Shown here: positions 2,242 to 32,409 of the stretch, piece by piece
Layout of the letters: each line of letters starts with the position of its first letter
How positions within the stretch are numbered: the stretch's first letter is position 1
From: Planctomycetota bacterium
GTDB taxonomy: Bacteria > Planctomycetota > UBA1135 > UBA2386
NCBI GenBank assembly: GCA_036724695.1
Contig: DAIMFJ010000001.1
Span: 1 to 33,902, forward strand
DNA length: 33,902 nucleotides
Reading direction: 5' to 3'
The notes under the pieces: generated by a model
Seen by the model: only the letters and a program-made list of their open reading frames with translations
What the model was told of the DNA's origin: nothing
Databases searched by the model: none
Made by a program: the position numbers and the translations under genes

Positions 2242-2248
2242 TGGCGCC

Positions 2249-2662: not shown

Positions 2663-2686
2663 GGTGGTCGGTTCGTTGGGAGCGGC

Positions 2687-3331: not shown

Positions 3332-3355
3332 CGCGTTGACGGGTCGGGCGCGGGA

Positions 3356-4795: not shown

Positions 4796-4812
4796 GGGAT
4801 GGACTCTCGCGC

Positions 4813-5604: not shown

Positions 5605-5650
5605 CGTCGTGGGTCCTGGAGTGCTTGGAGGTTCGACTGCCGCATGCGGC

Positions 5651-8611: not shown

Positions 8612-9867
8612 GGGGCGCTGAGCTCCGACGCGATCGCCTCGACGCGCTGTACGAGGTCGGCGGGCGGAACGAAGCCACTGGCGAGCATCGCCAGGGTGGT
8701 CTTCGCGAGGTCTTCGACGCGCGGCCGACCGTTCGGGTTGGCCATGCCTTCGGTCAGCGCGAGGCGGAACGCGCTCGCGGCGCGGTCGCGATCGCCGAGC
8801 ACTGCGTAGCCGATCGCGATCGGGCGCAGCGCGTCGCCTCGGAACACGTCGACGATGCGTTCGCGCGTCGCTTCGTACTGCGCCATCGCGTCGTCGAGGC
8901 CGGCGCGTGCACCAGCCATGTCGCCGGCGCGGGCCAGCGAAGTGGCGACGCGCGCCCGCAGCGCCACCTGATCCTCGGGCAGCCAGCCCTTGCCGAGCAC
9001 CAGCGTGGTGCAGCGGTTGGCGAGCAGGCGCGCCACCTCGCGCTGCTCGGCGGCGGTCGCCGCGTCCGCGGCGGCGAGCAACACGTCGATGCGCATCGTC
9101 AGCGGCAGTTTCGGATAGGCGTTCTGCAACAGGTCGAGCAACCGCTCGCGCGCCGTTTCGTCGCCGGCGAAACGGGCCAACAGATGCACGCAGAGCTGCA
9201 ATGCGGGCTGCGCGCGGTCGACGTTCTCGCTGGCCAGCATCTGCTGCAGGTCGGCGATCTGGCGTTCGAGGTCCTGCGGGTCGAGCTGCGCGGCGCGCAC
9301 CTCGGCGAGGTTGGCCACCTCGGCGTCGACCAGCCCCTTGGTCAGTTCGCCGGCCGCTTCGTGGCGGCCCTGCGCCAGCCGCACCGCGGCGACCTTGGCG
9401 CGGATGCGGTCGCGACGCCACGCCTGCGCGTCGTCGCCGCGCATCGCGTCGTCGGCGATCTGCAGAGCCGAGGCCAGGAGCGCCTCGACGTCGGCGTCGA
9501 CCCGGTTCGCCACGCAATGGTCGGCGAGCTCGGCCAGGCACTGGCCGCGCTCCCAACCGCTGATGTCGGCACTCCAGGTGCGGGCACGCTCGAGCAGTCC
9601 GGCCTCGATGCAGCCGCCGACCAGCAACGCCTGGATGCGATTGCGGTTCTTGCGATGCGGGGCATCGGGCAGCAGGCCTGTCGCACGCCATGCTGCGGCG
9701 AGCAGCGCCTGGTGCTCGGGAGCGATCGCCGCGTCCGCGAAGGCACGCAACGCGGGCCCGGCCGTGGCAGGTGCCGCGACCGGCGAAGGCGACGTCGTAG
9801 CAGGTTCGCCGCAGGCCACCAGGGCCACGGCAGCGCACCTGGACTGGCTCTTGTGGTATATTCTCAT
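8605..9867 (-). CDS. Helical-repeat lipoprotein of unknown function
   Basis: ORF 8605-9978, trimmed to ATG 9867 (MRIYHKSQSRCAAVALVAC, canonical lipobox LVAC). The body is alpha-helical and Ala/Leu/Arg-rich with no recognisable catalytic motif. Its stop overlaps the receptor start. Confidence 0.7.
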   Translation of the reverse strand: MRIYHKSQSRCAAVALVACGEPATTSPSPVAAPATAGPALRAFADAAIAPEHQALLAAAWRATGLLPDAPHRKNRNRIQALLVGGCIEAGLLERARTWSADISGWERGQCLAELADHCVANRVDADVEALLASALQIADDAMRGDDAQAWRRDRIRAKVAAVRLAQGRHEAAGELTKGLVDAEVANLAEVRAAQLDPQDLERQIADLQQMLASENVDRAQPALQLCVHLLARFAGDETARERLLDLLQNAYPKLPLTMRIDVLLAAADAATAAEQREVARLLANRCTTLVLGKGWLPEDQVALRARVATSLARAGDMAGARAGLDDAMAQYEATRERIVDVFRGDALRPIAIGYAVLGDRDRAASAFRLALTEGMANPNGRPRVEDLAKTTLAMLASGFVPPADLVQRVEAIASELSAPW

Positions 9868-9974: not shown

Positions 9975-11879
9975 TCACGGCAGGATCTTGGTGACCGCGT
10001 TGGTCGCGGCGATGCCACCCGGGGCGGCGTTGTCGAACACCAGCGCCTGCGCGTAGACCGGAATGCCCGAGAAGCCGTTCGGGAAGGTCAGGTTCTGCGA
10101 GCCGCTCAGCGTGCCGACGTAGCCGAACGTGTTGATGTTCGGGACCAGCGTGACCGCCGGGATGCCGATGCCGCCGAGGTTGAAGTCGGCGCGGGCGAAG
10201 CCGAAGCAGAACGCGTTGAAGCTGATCGCCGGCCCGTTGGCGATCGAGAACGTGGTCGGCTGGCCGGCCGCGGCCGTGCCGGCGACCTGCAGGACCGGCG
10301 CGCCACTGCCGCCGCGAGCCGAGGTGCCGAGGTCGGTCCAGTTGTCACCGCGGACCATGAAGCCGTAGGCGTCGGCAGCGGTCCAGCCGAGCGTCCAGTT
10401 GGTGGTCGGCGCGAACGCACCGCGGTAGCGGGCGGCGTCGAAGAACGAGTCGACCGCGTAGTTGGCCGAGACGAGCGCGTCGGCGGCCGGGCGCGGGTCG
10501 AGCGAGTTGACGTTGGCGACCGTGTTCGAGCCGCTGACGATCACCGCGGCGGCGCGACCCAGCGACTGGATCGGCATCGACGTGGCCTGCACGTTGTTGT
10601 TGCCGGCCGCGAACACGTTGTTGGCGTTGGCGGTCGTGTAGGCCTGGGCGTGCTGGTTGCGGTAGAAGACGTTGTCGGTGAACTCGATCAGGTTGCCCGA
10701 GGTCTGGGCCGTGTAGAACGCGGCCGGGTTCGCCGGGGCGTTGACCGTCGAGTAGGTGTTGTACGGGGTCGTCCACAGCGCGGCGAACGACAGCGTGCCG
10801 TTGTGGCCGTAGCCGAGGCCACCGTCACCGTCGACGTTGTCGTTGCGGATCACCTGCTCGCCGAGGTCCAGGAAGATCGAGTTGCGGACCTGCAGACGCG
10901 CGTTGTCGCGGAACGCGACGCCGTGGTCGCTGCCGCCAGCACCACCGGTGACCGGGGTCGTCGGCGCGCCGATGACGGTGAAGTTGTAGAGGGCCGCGGT
11001 CGTGACCGGCTGGTAGTCCGATTGCTCGGCGCCGTCGATCTCGATCGCGTTGTCGCCCCAGCCCGAGCCCTGGCTGCCCGGCACGCTGTAGCCCTGGACG
11101 ATCAGGCCGTATTGGGCCTTGCCGCGCCAGCCCTGGTCGACGTCGAAGCTGTCGTCGCCGATGTTCCAGATGCTGATGTTCTTCAGGTTGACCGTGCCAC
11201 CCCAGATCTCGATGCCGTCGTCGACATTGTTCATGATCTCGACGTGGTGGATGTCGGTGCCGCGGCCGATGCCGCCGAGCGACAGGCCGTTGAGCTCGTT
11301 GTTCAGCCCGATCACGCGGCCGCCGTAACGGAACGACACGTAGCTGAGCGTGCCGCTGTCGTCGTTGTCGTTGCCGCCGCCGTACAGGACCTTGGTGTCA
11401 CCGGGGAAGCCGGCGACCAGGCCTTCCATCGTGCCGACGTTGTTGGCGTTCGGGGTGGCGGTGTTGGTGTTGGGGTTCAGGTTCTCGCTGATGTACGCGG
11501 AACCCATGATCGTCAGGTTGCCCCACTCGTTGGCGGCGGCGCGCCAGGTGCCGGTCTTCGGGTCGTTGTTCGTCCAGGTCGCGACGTCGGCCTTCGAGGT
11601 GAAGATCACCGGCGCCTTCTCGGTGCCGTTGACGAAGATCTGCGCGCCGCGGGTCACCGCGAGGCTGCCACCGAGGCCGGTGTCGCTGGCGATGATGGTG
11701 CCCGCTTCGATGGTCAGCGTGGCGCCGGGCAGCACGTAGATCTGCTGCTGCAGGTTGTAGCGGTTGTTCGCCGTCCAGGTGGTCGACGTGGCGATGTTGC
11801 TCGTGACGAGCACTTCGGTCTGGGCGAGGGTCGCGCTGGTCAGCGCGGCGGTCGCCAGCAGGAGCTTGGTAGCGTTCAT
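9975..11879 (-). CDS. Secreted protein with a parallel beta-helix-like core, first gene of the receptor cluster; function unknown
   Basis: 634 aa with a signal peptide (MNATKLLLATAALTSATLAQ). Conserved blocks are NEWGNLTIMG, DDSGTLSYVSFRYGG, ELNGLSLGGIGRGTDIHHVEIMNNVDDGIEIWGGTVNLKN and DDSFDVDQGWRG. I recognise these from an uncharacterised family that I recall being found next to TonB-dependent receptors. There is a separate ~110-aa C-terminal domain. Confidence 0.8.
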   Translation of the reverse strand: MNATKLLLATAALTSATLAQTEVLVTSNIATSTTWTANNRYNLQQQIYVLPGATLTIEAGTIIASDTGLGGSLAVTRGAQIFVNGTEKAPVIFTSKADVATWTNNDPKTGTWRAAANEWGNLTIMGSAYISENLNPNTNTATPNANNVGTMEGLVAGFPGDTKVLYGGGNDNDDSGTLSYVSFRYGGRVIGLNNELNGLSLGGIGRGTDIHHVEIMNNVDDGIEIWGGTVNLKNISIWNIGDDSFDVDQGWRGKAQYGLIVQGYSVPGSQGSGWGDNAIEIDGAEQSDYQPVTTAALYNFTVIGAPTTPVTGGAGGSDHGVAFRDNARLQVRNSIFLDLGEQVIRNDNVDGDGGLGYGHNGTLSFAALWTTPYNTYSTVNAPANPAAFYTAQTSGNLIEFTDNVFYRNQHAQAYTTANANNVFAAGNNNVQATSMPIQSLGRAAAVIVSGSNTVANVNSLDPRPAADALVSANYAVDSFFDAARYRGAFAPTTNWTLGWTAADAYGFMVRGDNWTDLGTSARGGSGAPVLQVAGTAAAGQPTTFSIANGPAISFNAFCFGFARADFNLGGIGIPAVTLVPNINTFGYVGTLSGSQNLTFPNGFSGIPVYAQALVFDNAAPGGIAATNAVTKILP

Positions 11880-13249: not shown

Positions 13250-13265
13250 GCGGTAGGATTTGGGG

Positions 13266-14855
13266 ATGCGCGGCATCGTGATGCGGTGGTGTTCGGCGGT
13301 GGCTCTGTCGGCGGCGCTGGCCTGCGGCCAGACGGCGGCGGTCGAGCGACCGGTTTTCGAGGTGACGACGGTTGGGCCGGCTGGCTGGCGGGCTCGGCTG
13401 GGGCCGACGAACGTCGGCTCGCTGCTGGCCAGCGCCACCGGGGAGCGGCTGTGGCAGCCGCTGGTCGCGTCGTTGCGCACGGTGCTGGCCGACAACGAAG
13501 CGGTCGACGCCGATCTGCTGGCGAAGTGGCGCGACTACCACGGGCAGGTGTGGCTCGCAGTCTGGTCGGATCCCTTCGACCGGACGTCACCTACCGTGGC
13601 GATCGTTCTGCATGGCGACGGCAAGAGCGACCTGGCCGCACTGGCCAAGGACACGGCGCGCGTGCTGGGTACCGACCTGCAGGCCCCGATGCGCCTCTGC
13701 GGCCCGGTGATGGGCGACGACCGCGTCGGCTTCTACCTGACGTCCGCCGCCGAGGTCGACGCGGCCCTGGTCACCTACCAGTCCTTTGCCGATCGGCCGC
13801 GCGCGCCGCTGCCGCCGCAGGCACCAGCCTTGTCTGCCTCGCTCGACCTGGCGCAGCTGGTGACGGCCGCGACCGAGCGCGCCGACGACCAGGACGGCAA
13901 CCGCGCGCTCGGCCTACCCAGCCTGCAGCGCCTCGGCCTGGCGATCGGCGCGGCAGGTCCGCAGGTGCACTTCCGCACCGACCTGCAGTTCGCCGACCAG
14001 CCGCTGGGCATCTTCGCCGGCATCTTCCCACCGGCAACGCAACAACCCAACCTGCTGCACCTGGTGCCAGACGACGCGCGGCTGTGGCGCGCGACCCGCT
14101 TCGACCTGGCCACCGTCGCCAAGGCCGGACTCGACGCCTTTGCCGCGTACGAAGGCGTGCCGCCTGCCGAACTCCGCACGCGAGTGCGCGACGACCTCGG
14201 CTTCGACCTCGAGCAGGACCTGCTGGCCCACCTCGGCGACGAAGTCTTGTTCGCCATCGTGCCCGAAGCCGACGCCAGCGACGACGACGAATGGCAAGCC
14301 GATCGCGTCAACTGGACCCTCGGCTGGCGCCTGCGCGACGCCACCGCCTTCGCCGCGGGCTGGCAGAAGCTGCTCGACAGCGCCGGGCCGAACGTCACCA
14401 ACGCCGCCACCATCGACGTCGACGGAGCGCAGGCCCATCGCTGCGGCACCATCTTCCTCTACGACATCTGGTGGTCGACCGCCCACGGCATGCTGACCCT
14501 CGCCGGTGGCCGCGACGCCGAAGCCCTGATCACCCAACAGCTGACCCGCCTGAAGCAACCGCCCCCCGCGGCCCCCAAGCCGCCGCCCGCGTTCGCGAAC
14601 CTGCAACGCCACCTGCCACCCGGCACCTACGGCCTGGGCAGCAGCAACCTCTACTGGCTCGGGCTGGCCCCGGCCGGCCTGTTCGGCCTGCTCGCCGACG
14701 ACCTGCTGCTCCTGGGCCCCGCCCGCCACCTGTTCGACGACCCCGAACTCGACCGCGACACCCTGCTCGACCTCCTGCAGGTCCACCACCTCGACCGCAC
14801 CCACCTCGCCGTCGCCCGCCTCGCCAACACCTTCTCCTATCACCTTTTCTGGTAA
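13266..14855 (+). CDS. Secreted hypothetical protein
   Basis: ORF 13260-14855; I prefer ATG 13266, with AGGA 9 nt upstream. It has a signal peptide (MRGIVMRWCSAVALSAALACGQ) and strong G/C3 bias throughout. No motif was recognised. Confidence 0.7.
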   Translation: MRGIVMRWCSAVALSAALACGQTAAVERPVFEVTTVGPAGWRARLGPTNVGSLLASATGERLWQPLVASLRTVLADNEAVDADLLAKWRDYHGQVWLAVWSDPFDRTSPTVAIVLHGDGKSDLAALAKDTARVLGTDLQAPMRLCGPVMGDDRVGFYLTSAAEVDAALVTYQSFADRPRAPLPPQAPALSASLDLAQLVTAATERADDQDGNRALGLPSLQRLGLAIGAAGPQVHFRTDLQFADQPLGIFAGIFPPATQQPNLLHLVPDDARLWRATRFDLATVAKAGLDAFAAYEGVPPAELRTRVRDDLGFDLEQDLLAHLGDEVLFAIVPEADASDDDEWQADRVNWTLGWRLRDATAFAAGWQKLLDSAGPNVTNAATIDVDGAQAHRCGTIFLYDIWWSTAHGMLTLAGGRDAEALITQQLTRLKQPPPAAPKPPPAFANLQRHLPPGTYGLGSSNLYWLGLAPAGLFGLLADDLLLLGPARHLFDDPELDRDTLLDLLQVHHLDRTHLAVARLANTFSYHLFW

Positions 14856-15742: not shown

Positions 15743-17692
15743 TCACCGCCCAGCCGCCGCGCCGGGCAACGCGGCGAAGAACGCCCAGATCGCCGCAGTC
15801 GCATCCCACGGGAACGGCTGGTCGGCGCGCCGCGTGGTCCGCTCGGCCGCCCCCGGCCACGCATGCCCGCCACCCTCCAGCTGCACGACGCGCACCGGCG
15901 CCCCGCCGCCCGCCGCGGGCGCGTACTCGTCGACGACCACCTGGCCCTCGACGCTGCGCTTGGCCTCGGCCGCGCAACCGTTGCGCCGCACGTAGTAGTC
16001 GATCGCCGCCTGCAACGACGCGTCCAGGCGATCCCCAGCCTTGCCGATCGCGACCTCCGGAACGCCCCCCTCGATGCGCACGTGCCGATCCGCGGTACCG
16101 TGGATCAGCAAAGCTGCGATCGGCGTCGCCGCCTCGACCGCGGTGAAGTTCATCGCTCCCGCCACCGCCGCGAACCCCGCGAACACGTCCGCCGCCTCGC
16201 GCGCCAGCCGGTGGCACAGCATCGCCCCGTTGCTGTGCCCGACCGCGAACACACGCTGCGGATCGATCGCCGTGCGCCGCTGCACCGTGCGCACCACCTC
16301 GCGCAGGAATCCGACGTCGTCGACGCCCTGTTCGCTCGCGTAGACCTTGATGCCCCCGGCGTTCCAGGTCAGCAGCCGCCCGCGCAGCGGCCCGGTCCCG
16401 TCCGGAAACGCCACCACGAACCCCTCCCGCGCCGCCAGCTCCGCGAACCGCGTCGTCGCCGCGACCTGCTCGCCGTTGCCACCACCACCGTGCAGCACGA
16501 CGACCAACGCCGCACCGACCCCCTGCGGCCCCAGCTGCGGCTTCGCCGGCACGAACAGCGAGAACCGCCGCGTGCGGCCACCGTGCTCGAGCTCGACCAC
16601 CACCGATTCGCCAGCCTGTGCTGGCCCCTGCAGCACCTCACGCACGACCGCCTGCACCGTCTCCAACCGCGGCAGCACGCGCGTCGCCCGGTCGCGGATC
16701 GCCAGCACCCCGCCGATGCCCAGATCGAGGTCCAACCACGGCGTGAACCCGAACGCGCCCGGATCGCACGCGCGCAGCCACGTGCCTTCCGGCCGCACCA
16801 ACCACGAACCGAACCCATAGCGCACGCCCGCGAACGCCTCGCCGTAGTCGTTCGGCGTGCGCACCAGGACCGGCTCGGGCACCTGATCGCGCAGCAACGC
16901 CGCCACCGATTCGCGCGTCAACACCCGCCGCCCGCCGAACTCCCCCTCGGCGAGCAACATCTGCACGAACCTCGTGTAGTCCGCCAACGTCGACACCGCC
17001 GCCCCGGCGACCCCCGGCAACTTCGTCGTGCCCGGATCCGCCCCGAACGGCAGCATCGCCGCGAACTTCGTCGCCGCCATGCCCAGCGGCCCGCCGACGC
17101 GTTCGGCGAACAGCGTGTGCCAGTCCTTGCCGGTCACCCGCTCCGCCGCGATGGCCGCGATCTGGAACGTCACGCCGCCATACCGGAACGCCGTGCCCGG
17201 GGCATCGCGCAGCGACGCATCCGCCGCCACCGCCGCGAACTTCGCATTGTCCCAGTCGCGCTGGTTGCCCGGCAGCCGGCTCGGCCACCCGGCACTGCAC
17301 GACAGGCACTGCCGCAGCGTCACCGCCCGCTTGTCCGGGCGATCGAGTTCGACCACGTAGCGGCCGATCGGCGCATCGAGGTCGAGCAAGCCCTCGTCGA
17401 CGACCGCCAGCACGGTCGCCACCGCCAGCCACTTGCTCGCCGACGCGATCGGCATCGGCTCGTCGGCCAGCAGCCCGCGGTGCAGGCTCTGGTGCACGAC
17501 CTCCTGGCCACGCAACACGACCAACCCGGCCGGCGCGCGCCCGAGCCCGTCGAGCATCGTGTCGACGGCGGCGGCGATCGCCTCGACGCGCGGCGGCTCG
17601 ACCGGCGCACCCGGCGCGACCGGCCGCCCTGGCTCTTGTGCCAGCACCACCGCACCCAGCACCCCCGCGACGAAAATCGACCTGCGCAGCAT
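15743..17692 (-). CDS. Fusion protein: beta-lactamase-fold serine hydrolase (N-terminal) plus PHB-depolymerase/LpqC-type alpha/beta esterase (C-terminal)
   Basis: ORF 15743-17968, trimmed to ATG 17692 (AAGGA 7 nt upstream; MLRRSIFVAGVLGAVVLAQ signal peptide). The N-terminal half has the S-x-x-K motif (IASASKW). The C-terminal half has LVVVLHGGGGNG, DDVGFLREVV and the nucleophile elbow GHSNGAM. Confidence 0.8.
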   Translation of the reverse strand: MLRRSIFVAGVLGAVVLAQEPGRPVAPGAPVEPPRVEAIAAAVDTMLDGLGRAPAGLVVLRGQEVVHQSLHRGLLADEPMPIASASKWLAVATVLAVVDEGLLDLDAPIGRYVVELDRPDKRAVTLRQCLSCSAGWPSRLPGNQRDWDNAKFAAVAADASLRDAPGTAFRYGGVTFQIAAIAAERVTGKDWHTLFAERVGGPLGMAATKFAAMLPFGADPGTTKLPGVAGAAVSTLADYTRFVQMLLAEGEFGGRRVLTRESVAALLRDQVPEPVLVRTPNDYGEAFAGVRYGFGSWLVRPEGTWLRACDPGAFGFTPWLDLDLGIGGVLAIRDRATRVLPRLETVQAVVREVLQGPAQAGESVVVELEHGGRTRRFSLFVPAKPQLGPQGVGAALVVVLHGGGGNGEQVAATTRFAELAAREGFVVAFPDGTGPLRGRLLTWNAGGIKVYASEQGVDDVGFLREVVRTVQRRTAIDPQRVFAVGHSNGAMLCHRLAREAADVFAGFAAVAGAMNFTAVEAATPIAALLIHGTADRHVRIEGGVPEVAIGKAGDRLDASLQAAIDYYVRRNGCAAEAKRSVEGQVVVDEYAPAAGGGAPVRVVQLEGGGHAWPGAAERTTRRADQPFPWDATAAIWAFFAALPGAAAGR

Positions 17693-17790
17693 GGTTGTTC
17701 CTTTCGGCATTCCGCCGGCGAGCCCCTGTAACGCCACCCCGGGCCGTCCGCCCACCTGCGGTCCGACCGCCGTCCCACTACGGTACCCCG

Positions 17791-18183
17791 ATGCGCCCCT
17801 CCACCACGCTCCGCGCCGCCGCCCTGCTCGCCGGCACCGCCGTCGCGCTCGGCGCGTTCGCCGCGCACGGCATGAAACCCCACTACGAACCCGCCCAACT
17901 GGCGACGTTCGAAACCGGGGTCCGCTACCAGATGTACCACGCGCTGGCGCTGGGCCTGTGCGCGGCACTCGCCGCCGCCGGCTGGCGCACGCGCGGCGCC
18001 GAACTCGCGTTCCTGGCCGGCATCGCGTTGTTCTCGGGCTCGCTGTACGGGCTGGTCTGGCTCGACGCGCGCTGGCTCGGCCCGGTGACCCCGCTCGGCG
18101 GGGTCGCGTTCCTGGTCGGCTGGCTGCTGCTGGCCCTGTCGCGCCGCGATCCGACCTTGGTGGCCGACCGGGCGGCGTCCTAA
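17791..18183 (+). CDS. DUF423 (YgdD/TMEM256-like) small membrane protein
   Basis: ORF 17638-18183, trimmed to ATG 17791. 130 aa with four hydrophobic helices and the family-typical AAHG and YQMYHALAL segments. Confidence 0.75.
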   Translation: MRPSTTLRAAALLAGTAVALGAFAAHGMKPHYEPAQLATFETGVRYQMYHALALGLCAALAAAGWRTRGAELAFLAGIALFSGSLYGLVWLDARWLGPVTPLGGVAFLVGWLLLALSRRDPTLVADRAAS

Positions 18184-18198
18184 ACTCCCGGACGCACC

Positions 18199-18429
18199 AT
18201 GCACATCACGATCGACTACTGCGTCGTTTGAAACTACCGCCCCACGGCAGCCAGTCTGGCCGCCGCGATCACCGCCAAGCACCCGGCGGCCAAGGTCGAA
18301 CTGCGACCCGGCGGCAAGGGCGACTTCGTCGTCAAGGCCGGTGACCGCCTGCTCTGGGACAAGAAGGGCCGCGACGGCGGCGAGTTCCCGGAGCCCGAGC
18401 AGATCCTGAGCCAGCTCGCCAAGGCCTGA
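18199..18429 (+). CDS. selW: SelW/Rdx-family selenoprotein with an in-frame UGA (Sec) at 18229-18231
   Basis: Not in the ORF track. Translation: MHITIDYCVV-U-NYRPTAASLAAAITAKHPAAKVELRPGGKGDFVVKAGDRLLWDKKGRDGGEFPEPEQILSQLAKA, with the stop at 18427-18429. The TGA falls on the second redox position of the Rdx C-x-x-C/U motif. G/C3 bias continues on both sides of the TGA. A SECIS-like hairpin lies downstream. Confidence 0.85.
18245..18265 (+). promoter_or_regulatory. Candidate bacterial SECIS hairpin
   Basis: CGGC-A-GCC-AGUCU-GGC-C-GCCG begins 14 nt after the UGA. The apical CAGUCUG resembles my recollection of the E. coli fdhF SECIS apex (CAGGUCUG). This was folded by eye only. Confidence 0.5.
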
Positions 18430-18431
18430 GC

Positions 18432-19394
18432 GTGCCCCCGCGGGCCCTCATCGTCACGCCGGCAGCGCGCGGCAGCCGCAGCGGCAACCGCACGACGGCT
18501 CTGCGCTGGGCGGCGATGCTGCGCCAATGCGGCCTCGCCGTCGCGGTGCGCGAGCAGTGGCGCGGCGAACCCGTCGACCTGCTGGTCGCAGTGCACGCGG
18601 TCAAATCGCGCGACAGCGTGCTGGCGCACCGCGCCGCGCATCCGCACGGCAAACGCATCGTGCTGCTGGCCGGCACCGACGTCTACCCGACGTTCGCGCC
18701 CGACGCGACGACGCTGGCCGCGCTGGCCGCCGCCGACGCGATCGTCACGCTGCAGCCACTGGCGCAGCAGGTGTTGCCGGCCGACCTGCGCGGCAAGGCC
18801 CGCACGATCGTGCAGTCGGCCACCACGATCGCCAGCGCTGCACGGCCGGCGCACCCCTTCGCGGTGCTGGTGCTGGCGCACCTGCGCGCGATCAAGGACC
18901 CGCTGCTGCCGTTCGCGGCGCTGGCGTTCGTGCCGCGCGACCTCGACGTCACGATCACGCTGGCCGGGCAGGCCCTCGACACGGCACTCGGGCACGCCGC
19001 GACCGCTTGGGCGGCGCGCGACCCGCGCGCCCGGTACGTCGGCGAACTCGACCGGCGCACGGCCCGGCAGCAGATCGCCTGCAGCCACCTGCTGGTCGTG
19101 CCGTCGGCCGCCGAAGGTGGCGCCAACGTCGTCAGCGAAGCGATCGCCGCCGGCACGCCGGTGGCCGCCACCGCGGTGCCGGGCAACCTCGGGCTGCTCG
19201 GCGCCGACTGGCCGGCCTTGTTCCCGGCCAACGACGCCCGCGCCCTCGGCACCCTGCTGGCGACGCTCGCCAGCGCGCCAACGCAGTACGCGGCACTGCT
19301 GCAGCGCACGCTGGCCCTGCAGGACATGGTGGCGCCGGCGACCGAACTCGCCGCGTGGCGGCAGCTGCTGCGCGAGCTGGGTCTGGCGAACTGA
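18432..19394 (+). CDS. GT-B fold glycosyltransferase resembling the SenB (TIGR04348) selenosugar-synthase family
   Basis: 320 aa. The GTG start lies 2 nt after the selenoprotein stop. The N-terminus is IVTPAARGSRSGNRTTALRWAAML. Other blocks are LLAGTDVY and AHLRAIKDP, plus a C-terminal GT4-like block HLLVVPSAAEGGANVVSEAIAAGTPV. The CDS call is strong. The SenB-type assignment is from memory of family motifs, at about 0.5. Confidence 0.8.
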   Translation: MPPRALIVTPAARGSRSGNRTTALRWAAMLRQCGLAVAVREQWRGEPVDLLVAVHAVKSRDSVLAHRAAHPHGKRIVLLAGTDVYPTFAPDATTLAALAAADAIVTLQPLAQQVLPADLRGKARTIVQSATTIASAARPAHPFAVLVLAHLRAIKDPLLPFAALAFVPRDLDVTITLAGQALDTALGHAATAWAARDPRARYVGELDRRTARQQIACSHLLVVPSAAEGGANVVSEAIAAGTPVAATAVPGNLGLLGADWPALFPANDARALGTLLATLASAPTQYAALLQRTLALQDMVAPATELAAWRQLLRELGLAN

Positions 19395-19597
19395 CGCGGC
19401 GGACCATCGGCACAGGCGCTGCCGAGACGATTTTTCGGCCGACCCGACAACTCGCGACACCGCCAGCCAGCGCCACGCGGCGGCGCCAGAACCACAACCT
19501 GTAGTGGTATCCGCCAGATTGCCCCGCTACCGCTCCGTCAACCATGGCAAGCCACCTGCCCCCCGGTGCGCGACTCCAGGCAGTCCCCCTCCATGCC

Positions 19598-19873
19598 ATG
19601 AACATCCCCACCAAACACAGCCCCTCCCAACGCACCGCGATCTGCGACTCCCTGCGCCGCCTGTCCGCGCCGCACGCGCTGCACTTCGGCAACGAACTGC
19701 TGGCCCGCAGCAACGACGGCACGATCGCGTTCGGCACGTTCCTCGACATCGCGCGCGAATGGGTCGCGCACCTGCCCGACGAGACGGCCTTCTACCTGGC
19801 CTCGCTGATCGCGCTCGACATGAGCGACGACCTGACCGAGTTCCGCACCCCGGTCGAGCCGTCGCGGAACTGA
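19598..19873 (+). CDS. Small hypothetical protein (91 aa)
   Basis: ORF 19544-19873; I prefer ATG 19598 (MNIPTKHS). It has strong G/C3 codon bias and no recognised motif. Confidence 0.55.
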   Translation: MNIPTKHSPSQRTAICDSLRRLSAPHALHFGNELLARSNDGTIAFGTFLDIAREWVAHLPDETAFYLASLIALDMSDDLTEFRTPVEPSRN

Positions 19874-19889: not shown

Positions 19890-21368
19890 CTACACGATCA
19901 ACTCGTGGATCGGCTCGGCCCCTTCGGTGCCCACCAACCGCTGGTCCAGACCGGCATAGAAGTACGCCAACCGGTTGGGATCCAGGCCGAGCTGCTGCAG
20001 GATCGTCGCGTGCAGGTGTTTGACGTGGAACGGCTGGTCGACGGCGGCATAGCCGAGCTCGTCGGTGCTGCCGACCGACACGCCGCCCTTGATGCCGCCG
20101 CCGGCGAGCCACATCGTGAACCCGGCCGAATCGTGGTCGCGGCCGGTGCCTTCGGCGTATTCGGCGGTCGGCTGCCGGCCGAACTCGCCGCCCCAGACGA
20201 CGATCGTCGAATCGAGCAGGCCGCGTTGTTTGAGGTCGGTCAGCAGGGCGGCGATCGGCTTGTCGGTGTCGCCGGCGTGCTTCTCGTGATTGCCGATCAG
20301 GTCGCCGTGCGCGTCCCAGTTGTGGTCGTTGTGATTGCCGCCACTGTAGATCTGCACGAACCGCACGCCGCGCTCGACCAGCCGCCGCGCCAGCAGGCAC
20401 TTCTTGCCGAAGTCGGCGGTGCGCGGGTCGTCGAGGCCGTACAGCGTGCGCGTCGCTTCGTTCTCGCTGGCGATGTCGATCGCCTCGGGCGCGTGGCTCT
20501 GCATGCGGTAGGCGAGCTCGTAGCTGGCGATGCGCGCGGCGAGGTTGCTGTCGTCGGCGCGCCCGCGCAGGTGGCTGTGGTTCTGTTCGGCGAGCACGTC
20601 GAGCAACAGCCGCTGTTCGCTGTCGCTCATGCCGTCCGGGCGCGCCAGGTCGAGGATCGGCTCACCCTGCGAACGCAGCACCGTGCCCTGGTAGACCGCG
20701 GGCATGTAGCCGCTGTTCCAGTTCTTGGCGCCCGAGATCGGCCCGCCACTCTGGTCGAGCATCACGACGAAACCCGGCAGGTTCTCGTTCTCGCTGCCGA
20801 GGCCGTAGGTGACCCACGAACCCATGCACGGCGCCCCCGACAGGATGCGGCCGCTGTTCATCATCAGCATCGCCGAGCCGTGCAACGGCGAGTCGGCGTA
20901 CATGCTGTGCACGAACGCCATGTCGTCGACGCAGTGGGCGAGGTGCGGGAACAGCTCGCTGACGTGTTTGCCGCACTGCCCGTATTGCTTGAACTTCCAC
21001 TTCGGACCGACCACCCGCCCCTGGTTCTTGCTGCCGCCGCGGCCCTTGGTCTGGATGTCGATGGTCTTGCCGTCGAGCCCGTACAGCTTGGGTTTGTAGT
21101 CGAACGTGTCGACCTGGCTCGGCCCGCCGTACATGAACAGGAAGATCACCGCCTTGGCCTTGGCCGGGAAGTGCGGGGCCTTCGGCGCCAGTGGATTGTC
21201 GCCGCCATTGGGCAAGGCCGCGGACGGCGCCACGGACGGCGCCGCCGACAACACCCCGTCGCGCGACAACAGGTCGACCAGCGGCAGCGCCGTGAACGCG
21301 CCGCCAGCCTGCCACAGGAATTCGCGGCGCGTGCGGCCGCAGAAGGAATGCAGGTTGCGCAGTGACAT
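19890..21368 (-). CDS. DUF1501 protein (sulfatase/alkaline-phosphatase fold) with a twin-arginine signal
   Basis: This is the C-terminal 492 aa of ORF 19890-24041, starting at ATG 21368 (MSLRNLHSFCGRTRREFLWQAGGAFTALPL, a Tat motif). Family blocks are FLFMYGGPSQVDTFDYKP, GRDHDSAGFTMWLAGGGIKGG and HATILQQLGLD. Confidence 0.9.
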   Translation of the reverse strand: MSLRNLHSFCGRTRREFLWQAGGAFTALPLVDLLSRDGVLSAAPSVAPSAALPNGGDNPLAPKAPHFPAKAKAVIFLFMYGGPSQVDTFDYKPKLYGLDGKTIDIQTKGRGGSKNQGRVVGPKWKFKQYGQCGKHVSELFPHLAHCVDDMAFVHSMYADSPLHGSAMLMMNSGRILSGAPCMGSWVTYGLGSENENLPGFVVMLDQSGGPISGAKNWNSGYMPAVYQGTVLRSQGEPILDLARPDGMSDSEQRLLLDVLAEQNHSHLRGRADDSNLAARIASYELAYRMQSHAPEAIDIASENEATRTLYGLDDPRTADFGKKCLLARRLVERGVRFVQIYSGGNHNDHNWDAHGDLIGNHEKHAGDTDKPIAALLTDLKQRGLLDSTIVVWGGEFGRQPTAEYAEGTGRDHDSAGFTMWLAGGGIKGGVSVGSTDELGYAAVDQPFHVKHLHATILQQLGLDPNRLAYFYAGLDQRLVGTEGAEPIHELIV

Positions 21369-21385
21369 GGCAGGCCTCGTCGTCG

Positions 21386-24109
21386 TCAGTCCACGTAGAG
21401 GAATTCGTTGCTGTTGAGCAGCACCAGGCAGATGCGTTGCAATGCCTGGGCCGGGGATCGACCGTGTTCGGTGCACAGCCGCGTGTGCAGTGCGACGAGC
21501 CGCGCGACGTCGTCGGCGCGGGCCGGGCGCTGCGTCACCAACGCCAGCCCGAACTCGATCTGGGCCTTGGTCTCCTGGTGCGCGGCGGCGAGGCGCTGGG
21601 CCATGCGTTCGGCCTCCTGGTGGGCGAACTCGCCGTTCCACAGCGTCAGGGCCTGGGTCGGCTGCACGGTCGCGAAGCGCACCGGACAGCTGTTGTCGGT
21701 GTCGGCCTGGTCGAACCCGGCCAGCAGCGGCATCTGCAGCGAACGTTTGTTGTGCACGTACAGCGTGCGGCGCACTTCGTCGGCCGGCTTGGACTTGCCC
21801 CAGGCGTCCTCGGGCCGCGACGCGGTGGCCAGCACCGCCGCCGGCATCGGCGGGAACACCGTCGGCCCGCCGAGCTGCAGGTTGAGCGCCCCGGACACGG
21901 CGAGGATCGAGTCGCGGACCTCTTCGGCGGTCAGGCGCCGCCGGTCGAAACGCCAGAAGCGGTCGTTGGTCGGGTCGAGGTCCGACGCCGCCTGGTTGGG
22001 CGACGAGTCCATGCGGTAGGTGCGCGAGGTGACGATCAGCCGGTGCATCGCCTTCCAGCTGCCGCCGCGTTCGAGCAGTTCGGCAGCCAGCCAGTCGAGC
22101 AGGGCTGGATCGGTCGGCAGGTCGCCGAGGCGGCCGAACTCGCTGGTCGAACGCACGAGGCCGCGGCCGAAATGGTGCTGCCAGATGCGGTTGGCGGCGA
22201 CCCGCCAGGTCAGTGGATGGTCGGGGCGCACGATCCACTCGGCGAGCGCCGTGCGCCGCCCCGAACTGGTCCGCGTCGGCGTCGCCGTGACCGGCGCCTG
22301 GCCGATCGCGCCGAGCATGCTGGGGAAGCCCGGCTCGACCTGTTCGCCCTTGCTGTGCACGTTGCCGCGCAAGCGCAGGTAGCTGGCCGGCGGGTTCGGG
22401 CCGCTCTCCTGCACGGCGAGCACCTCGACGGTCTTCTGGCTCGGCCGCCGCAGCGCCGCGAGGTCGGCGAACGCGCCGCCGGCCGGCAGCACGTCGGGAC
22501 CGCCGACCTCGGCCAGCACGCGCGGCGCGGCGAGGCCACCCGGCAACTGCAACGCCAAGGCGGCGACCTCGGCGGCGTCGAGCGCGCGATCGTAGAACTG
22601 CAGTTCGTCGAGGTCGCCGCGGAAGCCGCGCCCGCCGGGCTGCAGCCGCCCGACCAGCAGCTTCGGCGGCGCGCTGAGCGGTGCCTTGGTGGCGATCGCG
22701 TCGCCCGCCAGCACGCCGTCGACGTACAGCGCGATCCGACCGCTCGCCATGTCGCGCGTGAACGCGACGTGGTGCCAGACGCCGTCGTGGTAGCCCGGTG
22801 CGGAGGTCAGGAACCTCTCGGGATTGCCGACGCCGGCGACGACGTGGCCGTCGCTGTGCCAGGCGATGCCCCAGTCGTGCACGATGCCGGGCACCTCGCC
22901 GTCGACGAGGCCGGTGCCGGTGAACCAGCGCCGGTCGACCGGCAGGCCGTCGCCGCGGTGCGTCGTGCGCACGAAGAACGACACCGAGAACGACTCCTCG
23001 ACCAGCCGCGGCAACACCACCGCGTCGTCGCCGTCGAAGCGCATGCCGCTGCCGACCACGCCGTCGCAGGGCACCACCTGGCCGTGGATCTGCCCGGCCG
23101 GGCCGCCGCGCGCGTCGCGCAGTTCGCTCGGGTGCGACGGGTCGCCGGTGAACGCCGCGCGCAGCGGTTGTTCGTGCTGCGCCTGCCACGCCGCGCGCGC
23201 CGGTTCGCCGAGCTGCTGCCAGGCGTGGTCCGCGGCACCGCGCAGCTTCGCGACCAGTTCGCCGCGCCGCGCCTCGAAGGCGGCCAACGCCGCTTCGTGG
23301 GCGCCGACCGCGCCGTCGGCCGGCACCGGGCGCGCGTTGAGGTCGTACGGCTTGAGGTTCTCGAAGAACGCCAGGAAGCCGTGGTACTCGCGCTGCGACA
23401 GCGGGTCCTTCTTGTGGTCGTGGCAGCGCGCACAGCCCATCGAGATGCCGAGCATCGTGCGCGCCGTCGTGTCGGCGATGCCGTCGAGGTCGTCGTAGCG
23501 GTGCTGTTCTGGATCGGTCGGCTCGTCGTCCCAGATGCCGAGCCGGTAGTACGCGGTGGCGACCAGGTCGCCGACGGTCGCGTCGGGGCGTTCGTCGCCG
23601 GCGAGCTGCCGGCGCACGAACTCGGCGTACGGCAGGTCCTGGTTGAACGCGTCGACGACCCAGTCGCGGTAGCGCCACACGAACGGCTTCTTGCGGTCGC
23701 GTTCGTAGCCGTCGGTGTCGGCGTAGCGCACGAGGTCGAGCCAATGGCGCGCCCACTTCTCGCCGTAGTGCGGCGAGGCGAGCAGGCGGTCGACGACCTT
23801 GGTCCAGGCGTCGGGCGAGGCGTCGGCGACGAACGCGTCGATCTCGGCGGCGGTCGGCGGCAGGCCGGTCAGGTCGTAGGTGAGGCGGCGCAGCAGCGTG
23901 TGGCGGTCGGCCTCGGCGGCCGGTCGCAGGCCGTGGGCCTCGAGGCCGGCCAGCACGAACGCGTCGATCGGGTTGGCCGGCCAGTCGGCGGCCGCGACCG
24001 GCGGCACGGCCGGCCGCTGCAGCGGCTGGTAGGCCCACCACGAATCGGCCGCCTGCGCGGCGAGCGGCGCCACGGCGACGAAGAACGGGACCAGCCAGTG
24101 CGCAACCAT
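21386..24109 (-). CDS. DUF1549 (PSCyt2) - LamG - DUF1553 (PSD1) protein
   Basis: ORF 21386-24157, trimmed to ATG 24109 (MVAHWLVPFFVAVAPLAAQA). DUF1549 block: NPIDAFVLAGLEAHGLRPA...LTYDLTGLPPT...SPHYGEKWARHWLDLVRYADTDGYE. The central LamG-like segment ends in FRGDLDELQFYDRAL. DUF1553 block: RRTLYVHNKRSLQMPLL..FD..D...SC..R..T.QAL.L.N. Confidence 0.9.
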   Translation of the reverse strand: MVAHWLVPFFVAVAPLAAQAADSWWAYQPLQRPAVPPVAAADWPANPIDAFVLAGLEAHGLRPAAEADRHTLLRRLTYDLTGLPPTAAEIDAFVADASPDAWTKVVDRLLASPHYGEKWARHWLDLVRYADTDGYERDRKKPFVWRYRDWVVDAFNQDLPYAEFVRRQLAGDERPDATVGDLVATAYYRLGIWDDEPTDPEQHRYDDLDGIADTTARTMLGISMGCARCHDHKKDPLSQREYHGFLAFFENLKPYDLNARPVPADGAVGAHEAALAAFEARRGELVAKLRGAADHAWQQLGEPARAAWQAQHEQPLRAAFTGDPSHPSELRDARGGPAGQIHGQVVPCDGVVGSGMRFDGDDAVVLPRLVEESFSVSFFVRTTHRGDGLPVDRRWFTGTGLVDGEVPGIVHDWGIAWHSDGHVVAGVGNPERFLTSAPGYHDGVWHHVAFTRDMASGRIALYVDGVLAGDAIATKAPLSAPPKLLVGRLQPGGRGFRGDLDELQFYDRALDAAEVAALALQLPGGLAAPRVLAEVGGPDVLPAGGAFADLAALRRPSQKTVEVLAVQESGPNPPASYLRLRGNVHSKGEQVEPGFPSMLGAIGQAPVTATPTRTSSGRRTALAEWIVRPDHPLTWRVAANRIWQHHFGRGLVRSTSEFGRLGDLPTDPALLDWLAAELLERGGSWKAMHRLIVTSRTYRMDSSPNQAASDLDPTNDRFWRFDRRRLTAEEVRDSILAVSGALNLQLGGPTVFPPMPAAVLATASRPEDAWGKSKPADEVRRTLYVHNKRSLQMPLLAGFDQADTDNSCPVRFATVQPTQALTLWNGEFAHQEAERMAQRLAAAHQETKAQIEFGLALVTQRPARADDVARLVALHTRLCTEHGRSPAQALQRICLVLLNSNEFLYVD

Positions 24110-24202
24110 GGGGAGAACCCCGAGATTGCAGCCCAGAACCCAGGGCAGCGCAAGCACCCCGGCGGGCGTTGCGCCGGATGCAAATTCCTTACGTCCGGCG
24201 GA

Positions 24203-26413
24203 TCAGCGCTCGGCAGGGGCCGGCGCGGCCGGTGGCGCCGTCAACAGGCGCTGCAGGGCGACCACGCGCGGGTTGCGCGGGTCGACGCCGAGTTCGAGGG
24301 CCTGCTGCAGCGAGACGTTCGCGGCGTCGGTCTGACCGGTCGCCCACTGCGCGTAGGCGAGGTTGGCGTGCAGTTCGGGCGGCACGCCGTCGCCGGCCAG
24401 CGGGGCCAGCAGGTCGCGCGCCTCGGCGGTGCGGTCGAGCGACAGCAGCGCCGCCGCGAGGTTCAGCGCGGTGGTCGGCGACTTCGCCAGTTCGTGGGCG
24501 CGGGCGAAGTAGCGGCGGGCCGAGTTCGGGGCCCCGTCGGCGAGCTCGAGCACGCCGCGCGCGGTCAGCGCGATCGCGTCGTCGCCGCGCAGCGCCAACG
24601 CCCGATCCAGGTGCGTGCGGGCCGCCGGCACGTGGCCGACACGTTGCTGCAACACCCCGGCGGCGACCAGACCGGTCAGGTTGGACGGCTCGAGGGCCAG
24701 CGCGCGTTCGATCGCGGTGACGGCCGCCGCGACGTTGCCGGCGTCGAGTTCGCCCTGGGCGAGGTGCAGCCAGTGCGCGGCCAGACCGCGGCGCGTGACC
24801 GTCAAGCCGGCATCGGCGGGCAGCAGCGCCGGCGGCCGCTCGGCGGTGCGGGCCGACGGGGCGGGCGCGGATTCGGCCGCTCCCTGCAGCTCGCCGCCCG
24901 ACCAGTCCTCGCCGCGCAGGTTCTCGATGCCGAGCGGGCTCCACTGGAACCCGCGGCGCAGGTCGGCGAGGCGGTGGGCGCCGCGGCGCACGCCTTCGGC
25001 GATCCACGCGTCGTCGAGCACGCGCGGCACCAGCACGATCATCAGTTCGACCTCCTGGCGGCCCTGCACGGTGCTCGAGAAGAGCTGCCCGAGGTACGGG
25101 ATGTTCATCAGGAACGGCACGCCCTGACGCGTCTCGTCCTTGCGCGTGCTGCGCAGACCGCCGAGCGCGATCGCCTGACCGTTGGCGACGCGCACCAGGG
25201 TGGTCGCCTGCCGCTCGCTGATCACCGGCACCGTGATCAAGCCGTCGGGAGTCACCACCGTGCCGGTCTGTTCGCGCACCTGCGGGGTCACGGCGACGGT
25301 CAGGAGACCGTCCTCGCCGATCATCGGGCGCACGTTGAGGGTCACGCCGGCTTCGACGAACTCGACGCCGTACTCGGTGCGCGCCACGCCCTGGTCGTCG
25401 ATCACCTCGCGGGTGATGTACGGCACCTGGTCGGTGATCGCGATCGAGGCGACCTGGTTGTTCATCGTCGACACGCGCGGGCTGCTGAGCACACGCACCT
25501 GGCCTTGCCGTTCGAGGGCGTCGACGAACACCGAGAAGTCGTTGGAGTCGAGCACGCCGAAGGTCAGCGCGGTGCCGCCGGAGGCCGCCACCTGCCGCAC
25601 GATCGCGCCACCACCGGCGAGGCCGGCCTGCGACGTGTTGGCGCCACCGGGCAGCAGGGCCCAGTTGACGCCGAGGCTGTGCGCGTCGTCGAGGCGCACC
25701 TCGAGCAGACGGGCCTCGATCGACACCTGGCGGTTGGCGCGGCCGACCGTCGTCGAGACGATCTCGCGCAGGCGCGCGATCGCGCTCGGCCGGGCGTCGA
25801 CGTGGATCGTCGAGGCGGCGCGGTTGACGACGATCGTGCCGTCCTCGCCGAGCAGGTTCGGCAGGCTGTTCTCGAGCACCGCCCAGAAGCTGTCGGTCTC
25901 GGCGCCGGAGCCGCTGTCGCCGCTCGAACCGCTGCTACCCGAGTCCCCGCTGCCGGTGTTGCTGCTGGCGGCGTCCATCAGGTCGACGTGGACCGTCTCG
26001 CGGACGCGTTCGACGATGCGCAGGTAGTTGCCGTCCCACTCGTAGCCGAGGTCGAGCGAACGCAGCACCGCCGCGAACGTCTCCTCGACGGTCGACCGCT
26101 TGATGTCGAACGTGCACTCGCGCGCCTGCACCGCCGCGTCGACCAGCAGGTTGATGTCGGAATCGCGGAACAGCGTCAGCAGGACGTCGCCGATCGGCGT
26201 GTTGCGGGCCTGCAGCGCTTCGACCGCGCGCTGGCCGGCTACCGGTGCGCCGAGATCGGGCATCGGCACGACCAGCATCGGCTCGAAGCTGGGTTCGCCC
26301 ATCGCCGAGTCCTGGTCGCGGACGGGCGGGGCGGCGCCGGAACCGGTCGCACAGGCGCCGGCGAGGATCGCGGCGGCACAGGCCGCCAACTGGGTGGGCT
26401 TGCGGGGCATCAT
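24203..26413 (-). CDS. Secretin (GspD/PilQ/MshL-type) lipoprotein with a C-terminal TPR extension
   Basis: ORF 24203-26986, trimmed to the ATGATG at 26413 (MMPRKPTQLAACAAAILAGAC, lipobox). Secretin core: RQVSIEARLLEVRLDD...VLSSPRVSTMNNQ...GVPFLMNIPYLGQLF...ELMIVLVPRVL. This is followed by a 268-aa tail with four to five TPR-like repeats. Confidence 0.9.
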   Translation of the reverse strand: MMPRKPTQLAACAAAILAGACATGSGAAPPVRDQDSAMGEPSFEPMLVVPMPDLGAPVAGQRAVEALQARNTPIGDVLLTLFRDSDINLLVDAAVQARECTFDIKRSTVEETFAAVLRSLDLGYEWDGNYLRIVERVRETVHVDLMDAASSNTGSGDSGSSGSSGDSGSGAETDSFWAVLENSLPNLLGEDGTIVVNRAASTIHVDARPSAIARLREIVSTTVGRANRQVSIEARLLEVRLDDAHSLGVNWALLPGGANTSQAGLAGGGAIVRQVAASGGTALTFGVLDSNDFSVFVDALERQGQVRVLSSPRVSTMNNQVASIAITDQVPYITREVIDDQGVARTEYGVEFVEAGVTLNVRPMIGEDGLLTVAVTPQVREQTGTVVTPDGLITVPVISERQATTLVRVANGQAIALGGLRSTRKDETRQGVPFLMNIPYLGQLFSSTVQGRQEVELMIVLVPRVLDDAWIAEGVRRGAHRLADLRRGFQWSPLGIENLRGEDWSGGELQGAAESAPAPSARTAERPPALLPADAGLTVTRRGLAAHWLHLAQGELDAGNVAAAVTAIERALALEPSNLTGLVAAGVLQQRVGHVPAARTHLDRALALRGDDAIALTARGVLELADGAPNSARRYFARAHELAKSPTTALNLAAALLSLDRTAEARDLLAPLAGDGVPPELHANLAYAQWATGQTDAANVSLQQALELGVDPRNPRVVALQRLLTAPPAAPAPAER

Positions 26414-27024
26414 CGGGAGGTCTCCAGGGATGGGGTCGCGGTGGCGGGCGCGCGTCTGGCGTGTTCGGCGCGGTATTCGACGGGCACGGGCTCGGCGAGC
26501 TCGTAGGTGAGGCGACGGTCGCGCCACTGCAGCTGCACGACGGCGCGTTCGATGCGCACGACGATGGCTTCGCCGATCGCATCGCCGACGCCGACGACGC
26601 GGCCGGCGACGACAGCGCGGCGGCTGTCCTCGCTGACCATCACGACGCCGACCGTCAGGAACGGTGGCGCGTCGCCGCTCCAGGCGCCGGCGGGCCTGGT
26701 CTCGGCCAGTGGTGCTGGCACAGGGGCGGCTGCCTCCGGAGCAACCGCGAACAACGCCGGCAATTCGGCGGACTTGCGCCAGACGCCGAACTCGGCGACC
26801 AGATCGCGGCCAGGGCCGCTGTCCGCCTCGACGGTCGTTTGCTCGTCTGCGTCGGCTTCTGGATCCAGCCACTGCTGCACGGCATCGGCGACCGCGGCCG
26901 TCTTGGCCCCGAGGTTCCCGCCCGAACCGGCGAGCGAACTCCAGGCGACGTACCCGCCGACGGCCAACAGGCACGCGGCGAACCACGGCTGCTGGGTCAG
27001 ACGCTTCTTGACGGGTTTCTTCAT
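26410..27024 (-). CDS. Single-pass membrane protein, PilP/GspC-HR/MshK-like position and shape
   Basis: ATG 27024 (MKKPVKKRLTQQPWFAACLLAVGGYVAW). The C-terminal beta-rich block is GVVMVSEDSRRAVVAGRVVGVGDAIGEAIVVRIERAVVQLQW. ATGA overlaps link it to genes on both sides. Homology is inferred from architecture only. Confidence 0.6.
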   Translation of the reverse strand: MKKPVKKRLTQQPWFAACLLAVGGYVAWSSLAGSGGNLGAKTAAVADAVQQWLDPEADADEQTTVEADSGPGRDLVAEFGVWRKSAELPALFAVAPEAAAPVPAPLAETRPAGAWSGDAPPFLTVGVVMVSEDSRRAVVAGRVVGVGDAIGEAIVVRIERAVVQLQWRDRRLTYELAEPVPVEYRAEHARRAPATATPSLETSR

Positions 27025-28927: not shown

Positions 28928-28937
28928 GCGAGGATGC

Positions 28938-31604: not shown

Positions 31605-31646
31605 GGGGGCTGGCCGCGTGGTGGGGCGCGGTGGCGCGGCGCTCGC

Positions 31647-32294: not shown

Positions 32295-32409
32295 GCAAAG
32301 CGCATCGGCGAACGGAACTTCTCGACTTGAGAGTGCCCCGGGAGGCGGAGCGGGGGGCTGCGTGGAGGCCTCGCTAAGGTCCCGCCGGCGATCTTGTCGA
32401 TGCGATGGC

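Follow-up and report, generated by a model that had tools for sequence, protein, structure and literature searches.

A predicted SelW-like selenoprotein gene with a candidate SECIS element in its coding region in an uncultured planctomycete

A gene that standard annotation leaves out very probably encodes a selenoprotein in an uncultured planctomycete. The gene lies at positions 18199 to 18429 of the forward strand of the window, by which we mean the whole stretch of DNA that was analyzed (33,902 nucleotides). We think it highly likely that it is functional, that its product is a 76-residue SelW-like protein of the Rdx family, and that the UGA at its codon 11 is decoded as selenocysteine (Sec). 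The product belongs to the Rdx family, its UGA falls on the redox cysteine column of that family and is conserved among orthologues, the hairpin that follows the UGA is under selection at the level of RNA, and UGA is otherwise an ordinary stop codon on the contig.

Results

The reading frame of selW continues through a TGA codon. From the ATG at 18199, codons 1 to 10 read MHITIDYCVV, codon 11 is a TGA (18229-18231, +) that we propose as the selenocysteine codon, and 65 further sense codons run to a stop TGA at 18427-18429, giving a predicted gene of 76 codons plus the stop. Translation of 18199-18429 (+) as read is MHITIDYCVV*NYRPTAASLAAAITAKHPAAKVELRPGGKGDFVVKAGDRLLWDKKGRDGGEFPEPEQILSQLAKA*, and the predicted product is that sequence with U in place of the first asterisk. 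The initial annotation, made from the sequence alone, had placed the ATG, the internal TGA, the 65 codons, and the stop at these positions, and translation bears it out in each. The bias toward G or C at third codon positions, said there to continue past the TGA, does so: of codons 1 to 10, nine have G or C as their third base, and GC3 is 0.91 downstream of the internal TGA. No in-frame ATG, GTG, or TTG was found 3' of the internal TGA in the selW frame, and the frame therefore has no listed open reading frame (ORF) of at least 40 amino acids, just as the gene had been described as missing from the ORF list. Gene callers had also been expected to skip or fragment the gene. Indeed, no gene is called between the flanking DUF423 and glycosyltransferase genes in two other assemblies of the identical DNA, and fragments of 42 to 49 amino acids are called elsewhere.

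In principle, the TGA could have arisen through faulty sequencing or assembly, or a Cys-form Rdx gene could recently have acquired a nonsense mutation, with the downstream hairpin a by-product of Ala-rich, G+C-rich coding. We find this improbable in the extreme. Two independent assemblies built from different sequencing runs (Logan assemblies SRR30418096 and SRR1702227; loci L084 and L085) carry all 231 nucleotides of selW unchanged, and the TGA therefore is not an assembly error. The downstream glycosyltransferase sequence in both assemblies is likewise exactly identical to that of the window. Moreover, the same TGA is present in all 83 orthologues described below. A pseudogene or a sequencing error was considered as an explanation of the locus and was ruled out by that conservation together with the identical independent assemblies.

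Within the window, UGA behaves as a stop codon. TGA terminates 11 of the 13 confident (Pfam-supported) window genes and is internal to none of them, and we conclude that a reassigned code is excluded. When the window was scanned for further in-frame TGAs flanked on either side by coding signal, the only matches were adjacent genes that share a frame, and no CxxU or UxxC motif was present in any of them. These observations bear on the reading that the UGA of selW is translated as a standard amino acid (Cys, Trp, or Arg by a near-cognate tRNA, or through reassignment of UGA) and not as Sec. Other systems are known to insert Cys or Trp at Sec UGA codons at a low level under selenium shortage, and thus the reading has a precedent. 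We nevertheless give it very little credence, as UGA ends genes on this contig, no orthologue carries a Cys codon in its place, and the hairpin that follows at a fixed distance is of the bacterial SECIS type and under RNA-level selection, which is the signature of SelB-dependent decoding.

The predicted product is a member of the Rdx family. When U was written as C for profile and structure searches, Pfam Rdx (PF10262) matched with 60.9 bits against a cut-off of 22.6, and NCBIfam TIGR02174 (CXXU_selWTH) matched with 49.9 bits against a cut-off of 34.2. The Pfam match places residues 2 to 73 on profile positions 1 to 72 of 74 and spans the UGA. With both scores above curated cut-offs, the family identity first proposed for the product is upheld. 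The top-scoring NCBIfam model was NF041051 (SelTWH_Campy), a Campylobacter-type equivalog to which the product is not assigned because its 73.3 bits fall under the cut-off of 88. Rdx proteins of solved structure were also matched, namely, 3DEX (E value, 2.3e-8), 2LJK/MIEN1 (E value, 7.6e-8), 2FA8, 2OKA, 2OBK, and 2OJL, and homology to these structures suggests a thioredoxin-like fold for the selW product.

The UGA is at the redox position of the family. The motif C8-V-V-U11 (TGC GTC GTT TGA; 18220-18231, +) aligns with the CxxC of solved Rdx proteins, and in the four alignments inspected (3DEX, 2LJK, 2FA8, and 2OKA), U11 falls on the second Cys of that motif. YCVVU is aligned with YCTQC in 3DEX, 2FA8, and 2OKA and with YCEPC in 2LJK. 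The initial annotation had predicted that the UGA would occupy the Cys/Sec column and had named a TGA off that column as grounds for abandoning the idea; the TGA is on it. Structures of the Cys form (3DEX [SAV_2001], 2FA8 [Atu0228], 2OKA, 2OBK, and 2OJL) can be aligned with the product over 67 to 70 residues and share with it the blocks YCxxC/U, PGxxGxF, and FPEP. They differ in having Cys where the window gene has the Sec codon, in being approximately 25 to 30 residues longer, and in the Trp of the helix (RAAWLAQ), in place of which each of the 83 Sec forms carries S, G, or R.

Orthologues conserve the UGA. A word-indexed search of protein databases gave only two matches, both of them fragments truncated at the UGA: a 42-amino-acid JGI product with the source name "predicted Rdx family selenoprotein" and a 49-amino-acid NCBI "Rdx family protein" from a planctomycete (Planctomycetota) metagenome-assembled genome (MAG). 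Matches were so few because protein databases hold Sec forms only up to or from the UGA. The DNA upstream of both fragments shares with the window its ATG, its first ten codons, and its in-frame TGA. A four-sequence alignment was then used to scan bacterial genomes, one for each species and without the window's own genome among them, which provided 80 genome loci, the closest of them 72% identical, and these together with three metagenome or MAG loci make up the 83 orthologues. The 80 loci are distributed over Planctomycetota, many Gemmatimonadota, Acidobacteriota, Holophagae, Fibrobacteraceae, Alphaproteobacteria, Desulfuromonas, Myxococcales, and Krumholzibacteriia. Codon 11 is TGA in 83 of 83 orthologues with homologous sequence on both sides, and a Cys codon (TGY) occurs at that position in none of the 83, which argues that Sec and not Cys is wanted there. 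Conservation of the N terminus is partly circular, since the pattern M[HR]ITI[DE]YC was used to retrieve the 80 genome loci; the TGA three codons past the pattern and the homology downstream of it were not built in by the pattern.

A hairpin follows the UGA. It had been reported at 18245-18265 (+), and we recovered it there as the minimum-free-energy fold of the 47 nucleotides from 18229 to 18275 (-13.4 kcal/mol; -12.6 kcal/mol on 24 nucleotides). This candidate bacterial-type SECIS element, CGGC-A-GCCA/GUC/UGGC-C-GCCG, pairs 18245-18253 with 18257-18265 around the loop G18254 U18255 C18256, which is closed by A18253-U18257, and its stem is interrupted by a single A.C mismatch (18249/18261). 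The mismatch is real, because it is identical in the two independent assemblies. By itself the hairpin is unremarkable. Its stability was not unusual against dinucleotide shuffles of the window sequence alone (z = -1.1), and 47% of synonymous recodings of TAASLAAA, drawn with the codon usage of the window, fold at least as well (p ~0.47). An Ala-rich helix in DNA of 70% G+C yields hairpins for free. That figure of 47% is also what speaks for the hairpin as a coding by-product, and the evidence that the hairpin exceeds chance comes from comparison of orthologues and not from the window sequence alone.

The hairpin has the form of known bacterial SECIS elements. The published consensus calls for an apical loop of 3 to 9 nucleotides on an upper stem of 4 to 16 bp, a G within the first two loop positions (mostly as N1-G-[G/U]-N-N2 with N1 and N2 paired), a distance of 16 to 37 nucleotides from UGA to loop, and a minimum free energy of -7.5 kcal/mol or lower (PMC13188914). 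The window hairpin conforms to that model in all four respects. The loop is GUC (3 nucleotides) or AGUCU (5 nucleotides), with 4 bp above and 4 bp below the A.C mismatch, and A-G-U-C-U, with A18253 paired to U18257, fits the loop pattern. Spacing is 21 to 22 nucleotides (18232 to 18252/18253), and -13.4 kcal/mol lies below the energy threshold. Rfam returned no SECIS family, either over the whole window at gathering score or over 18150-18480 at an E value of up to 10, where only chance-level small RNA matches appeared. The Rfam result carries little weight, as the hairpin is only about 20 nucleotides long and the bacterial SECIS models of Rfam are lineage specific and short.

Resemblance of the apex to the SECIS element of Escherichia coli fdhF, which the initial annotation had noted, is real. 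The fdhF SECIS string that we used for the comparison matched fdhF at 100% in 5419 of the 5426 E. coli genomes. At its apex it reads GGUCUG, identical to the consensus of the SelW-like orthologues, and the window apex is AGUCUG. Like the fdhF element, the window hairpin lies immediately 3' of the UGA and presents G-U in a small apical loop. It differs in that the G-U is at positions 26-27, counting the U of UGA as 1, and thus is 3 nucleotides farther from the UGA than in fdhF (positions 23-24), and in that the SelW-like stem is without a conserved bulged U.

Across orthologues the hairpin evolves as RNA. We aligned the 45 nucleotides from the TGA, gap-free, in 83 sequences, 79 of them distinct, with the U of UGA as column 1. 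In the helix formed by columns 17-25 and 29-37, 85% of cells were paired, compared to 19 to 53% when the 3' partners were slid by one to three columns. The covariation score, computed on sequences that are related and coding, was 0.325 compared to 0.150 in column shuffles, was reached by none of 500 shuffles, and fell to 0.03 to 0.13 in the slid controls. Five of the nine hairpin pairs have changed on both sides. Pair 21-33, which joins two third-codon positions, occurs as CG (49), GC (19), UA (5), AU (2), UG (2), and GU (1); pair 22-32 occurs as GC (57), UA (5), AU (4), and UG (3); and pair 18-36 occurs as GC (49), AU (6), CG (4), and UG (4). The window is the sole sequence of the 79 with a nonpair, A.C, at pair 21-33. 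Even amino acid changes are paired such that the stem stays, as in GCC-UCC...GAG-GCC (A-S...E-A), GCU-ACC...GUA-GCC (A-T...V-A), and GCC-GUC...ACG-GCC (A-V...T-A). A six-pair core was recovered independently by RNAalifold.

The loop also constrains the codon written across it. The loop G (column 26; window position 18254) is invariant in 83 of 83 sequences. The codon of the loop (columns 25-30; window region 18253-18258) is AGT in 29, GGT in 42, and AGG in 12 of the 83 and is never AGC, TCN, or GGC. In the genes of the window, AGT makes up 2.5% of Ser codons and GGT makes up 11.8% of Gly codons. Thus, the SECIS element appears to dictate the amino acid at the loop position, which is S, G, or R by way of AGT, GGT, or AGG. 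The exclusive use of these loop codons, like the covariation at synonymous sites, cannot be the outcome of protein coding alone and argues against a hairpin that is a mere by-product of coding. Compared to synonymous recodings, hairpins of the family are also more stable (median of -13.65 versus -9.66 kcal/mol), with p <= 0.05 in 41% of sequences and p <= 0.2 in 79%. Cys-form Rdx DNA was sought as a control for the hairpin, and tblastn against PLSDB plasmids gave no match.

A covariance model built without the window finds the window. The initial annotation had suggested that an Infernal SECIS model be run on the UGA region, and we built one for the purpose from the UGA and hairpin of 70 loci (L014-L083) that are almost entirely nonplanctomycete, leaving out the window and its close planctomycete relatives. 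The model gave a single significant site in the window, 18229-18273 (+), with 38.6 bits and an E value of 1.6e-7. The runner-up, at 12.9 bits, was the reverse complement of the hairpin itself. A sequence-only model from the same alignment scored 32 bits, and the base pairs therefore add approximately 6.6 bits.

Genes for Sec decoding were not encountered near selW. ARAGORN found no tRNA gene in the window and no tRNA-Sec in any orthologue locus, including 1.2 Mb of flanks, and no sel gene was found among the Pfam-annotated ORFs of the 33.9-kb metagenome contig. A tblastn search of the window and the 83 loci with the same 1.2 Mb of flanks, using E. coli SelA, SelB, and SelD as queries, gave no homologue of the three and only one weak GTPase match, in L035. 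Complete selA/selB/selD sets have been reported in several Planctomycetes, among them Gemmata obscuriglobus, Isosphaera pallida, and a Rhodopirellula (PMC4807772). The supplements of that paper make no mention of SelW or Rdx.

The locus could be a relic, in which UGA terminates translation after a 10-residue peptide, or nothing is made, in a lineage that lost or never had the Sec machinery. The failure to find sel genes or tRNA-Sec in the window or in orthologue flanks is in keeping with a relic, as are the A.C mismatch carried by the window alone and a window hairpin that is not statistically unusual by itself. A relic would be expected to decay, however, and selW has not. All 65 codons downstream of the UGA remain open and keep their G/C bias, and the Rdx match extends to the end. 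Compared to 88%-identical orthologues, selW has 11 to 12 synonymous and 9 nonsynonymous codon differences, such that synonymous changes are at least as frequent, and codons 1 to 10 have no amino acid change at all. Moreover, the rare AGT loop codon is retained, the gene is packed between two others with spacers of 15 and 2 nucleotides, and the surrounding block is kept with the same TGA in seven related planctomycete loci. We conclude that a relic is very unlikely and that selW is very probably a working selenoprotein gene.

The neighborhood of selW is conserved within one planctomycete clade. Upstream is a gene for a DUF423 membrane protein (17791-18183, +; Pfam DUF423, 88.8 bits), the stop codon of which is 15 nucleotides before the selW ATG, and downstream is a family 1 glycosyltransferase gene (18432-19394, +; Pfam Glyco_trans_1_4 and Glycos_transf_1), the GTG of which is 2 nucleotides after the selW stop. 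Spacers this short suggest a single transcript, and the three genes are probably cotranscribed. A terminator-like hairpin with a T-run at 19407-19425 (+) may mark the end of the transcript; it is a weak candidate from a consensus scan that gave two sites where 0.7 were expected. The glycosyltransferase gene after selW is syntenic in L001, L002, L005, L007, and L011. The larger block consists of a beta-lactamase/alpha-beta-hydrolase gene (-), DUF423, selW, the glycosyltransferase gene, and a small conserved ORF (19544-19873; no Pfam match) and spans 15743-19873. It is present in the window, L001, L002, L004 to L007, and L011 and is absent in other phyla. Being confined to one clade, the block reflects lineage synteny and not a family-wide functional link. 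The neighborhood in Gemmatimonadota differs from the planctomycete one, which argues against a universal operon partner. We note that in several Gemmatimonadota (L042, L043, L055, L068, and L075), the gene right after selW begins MRIAISTGGGD, a start that we take to resemble the N terminus of 6-phosphofructokinase.

The rest of the contig looks planctomycete by content. A gene for a PSCyt2/PSD1 protein with a Laminin_G_3 domain (21386-24157, -; Pfam) is followed by one for a DUF1501 protein (19890-21383, -; 506.8 bits), and this pair (19890-24157) is typical of Planctomycetes. A TonB-system cluster (1585-9838, -) encodes a TonB_C protein, ExbD, two MotA/ExbB proteins, a DUF3450 protein, and a TonB-dependent receptor with a CarboxypepD_reg domain. 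The receptor ORF, at 1395 amino acids, may have an overextended start, as its first ~430 residues are without a Pfam match. A cluster resembling type II secretion or type IV pilus systems (24203-33900) includes a secretin fused to TPR repeats (24203-26986, -), a pseudopilin that carries an N-methylation motif, T2SSF, and a T2SSE ATPase whose ORF is cut off by the window end. No Pfam match was found for the ORFs at 27524-28927, 27021-28412, and 29578-30390. Strong coding signal without a Pfam family was also seen in a 634-amino-acid ORF (9975-11879, -; GC3 of 0.95) and a 531-amino-acid ORF (13260-14855, +; GC3 of 0.90). In the place of the latter, L001 and L003 have genes of similar length that are likewise without a Pfam match, a likeness of length and position alone.

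Discussion

How selW would be expressed can be predicted from its parts. A ribosome would start at the ATG at 18199 and meet the UGA at codon 11. The apical G-U loop of the 18245-18265 hairpin, 21 to 22 nucleotides 3' of the UGA, would hold SelB-GTP with its Sec-tRNA(Sec), and selenocysteine would be inserted at the UGA in place of release. The product would be a small protein of the thioredoxin fold, in which Cys8-x-x-Sec11 may cycle between a selenolate/thiol and a selenylsulfide, and such cycling would imply a thiol-dependent redox role.

SelW-like selenoproteins have been known since 2004-2005, and the window gene is an unannotated new copy that is otherwise ordinary. Among the selenoprotein families of the Sargasso Sea data, the SelW-like one ranked first in abundance with 48 genes (PMC1088965). 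A genome survey in 2006 listed ten SelW-like members and found Cys homologues to be few or absent in Sec-using organisms (PMC1794560). A 2026 review describes prokaryotic SelW-like proteins as "predicted with high confidence," with Sec not experimentally shown (PMC13188914). Curated Pfam and NCBIfam models already cover the family, and the JGI name of the orthologous fragment includes the word selenoprotein. The window gene is like other bacterial members in its length of approximately 75 residues, in a CxxU motif right after beta-1 near the N terminus, in a SECIS element inside the coding region just past the UGA (PMC1088965, PMC1794560, PMC13188914), and in having few or no Cys forms among close relatives. 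In nothing essential does it differ from them; what sets it apart is its uncultured planctomycete host and the lineage-specific DUF423-selW-glycosyltransferase block.

The relation to the eukaryotic proteins is one of fold and motif. Mammalian SELENOW and MIEN1/C17orf37 are of the same Rdx fold family and carry the CxxU/CxxC motif. Eukaryotic SELENOW differs, however, in how Sec is specified, as it uses a kink-turn SECIS element in the 3' untranslated region together with SBP2 and eEFSec (PMC1088965). The window gene has instead a candidate hairpin of the SelB-bound type in its coding region.

What SelW does in this clade might be sought in its neighbors. One could propose that SelW is the redox component of a conserved operon in which it stands between the DUF423 membrane protein and the glycosyltransferase, and we regard the proposal as unlikely. 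If it were true, the operon would provide the first concrete partner and pathway for bacterial SelW-like proteins, for example, envelope glycosylation or membrane-associated thiol chemistry. Weaker still is a variant in which the A.C mismatch unique to the SECIS element of the window tunes Sec insertion down.

The main importance of the finding is for annotation, and our understanding of selenocysteine decoding itself is unchanged by it. The 83-sequence alignment is a clean example of a bacterial SECIS element written into a protein helix: synonymous sites change so as to compensate for one another, and where Cys forms have Trp, a rare codon (AGU or GGU) is imposed. The alignment could also serve as the seed of an improved covariance model for SECIS elements of the SelW type, which Rfam missed here. 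Finally, gene callers leave selW empty or give a fragment of 42 to 49 amino acids, and the selenoproteomes of uncultured Planctomycetota and Gemmatimonadota are therefore undercounted.
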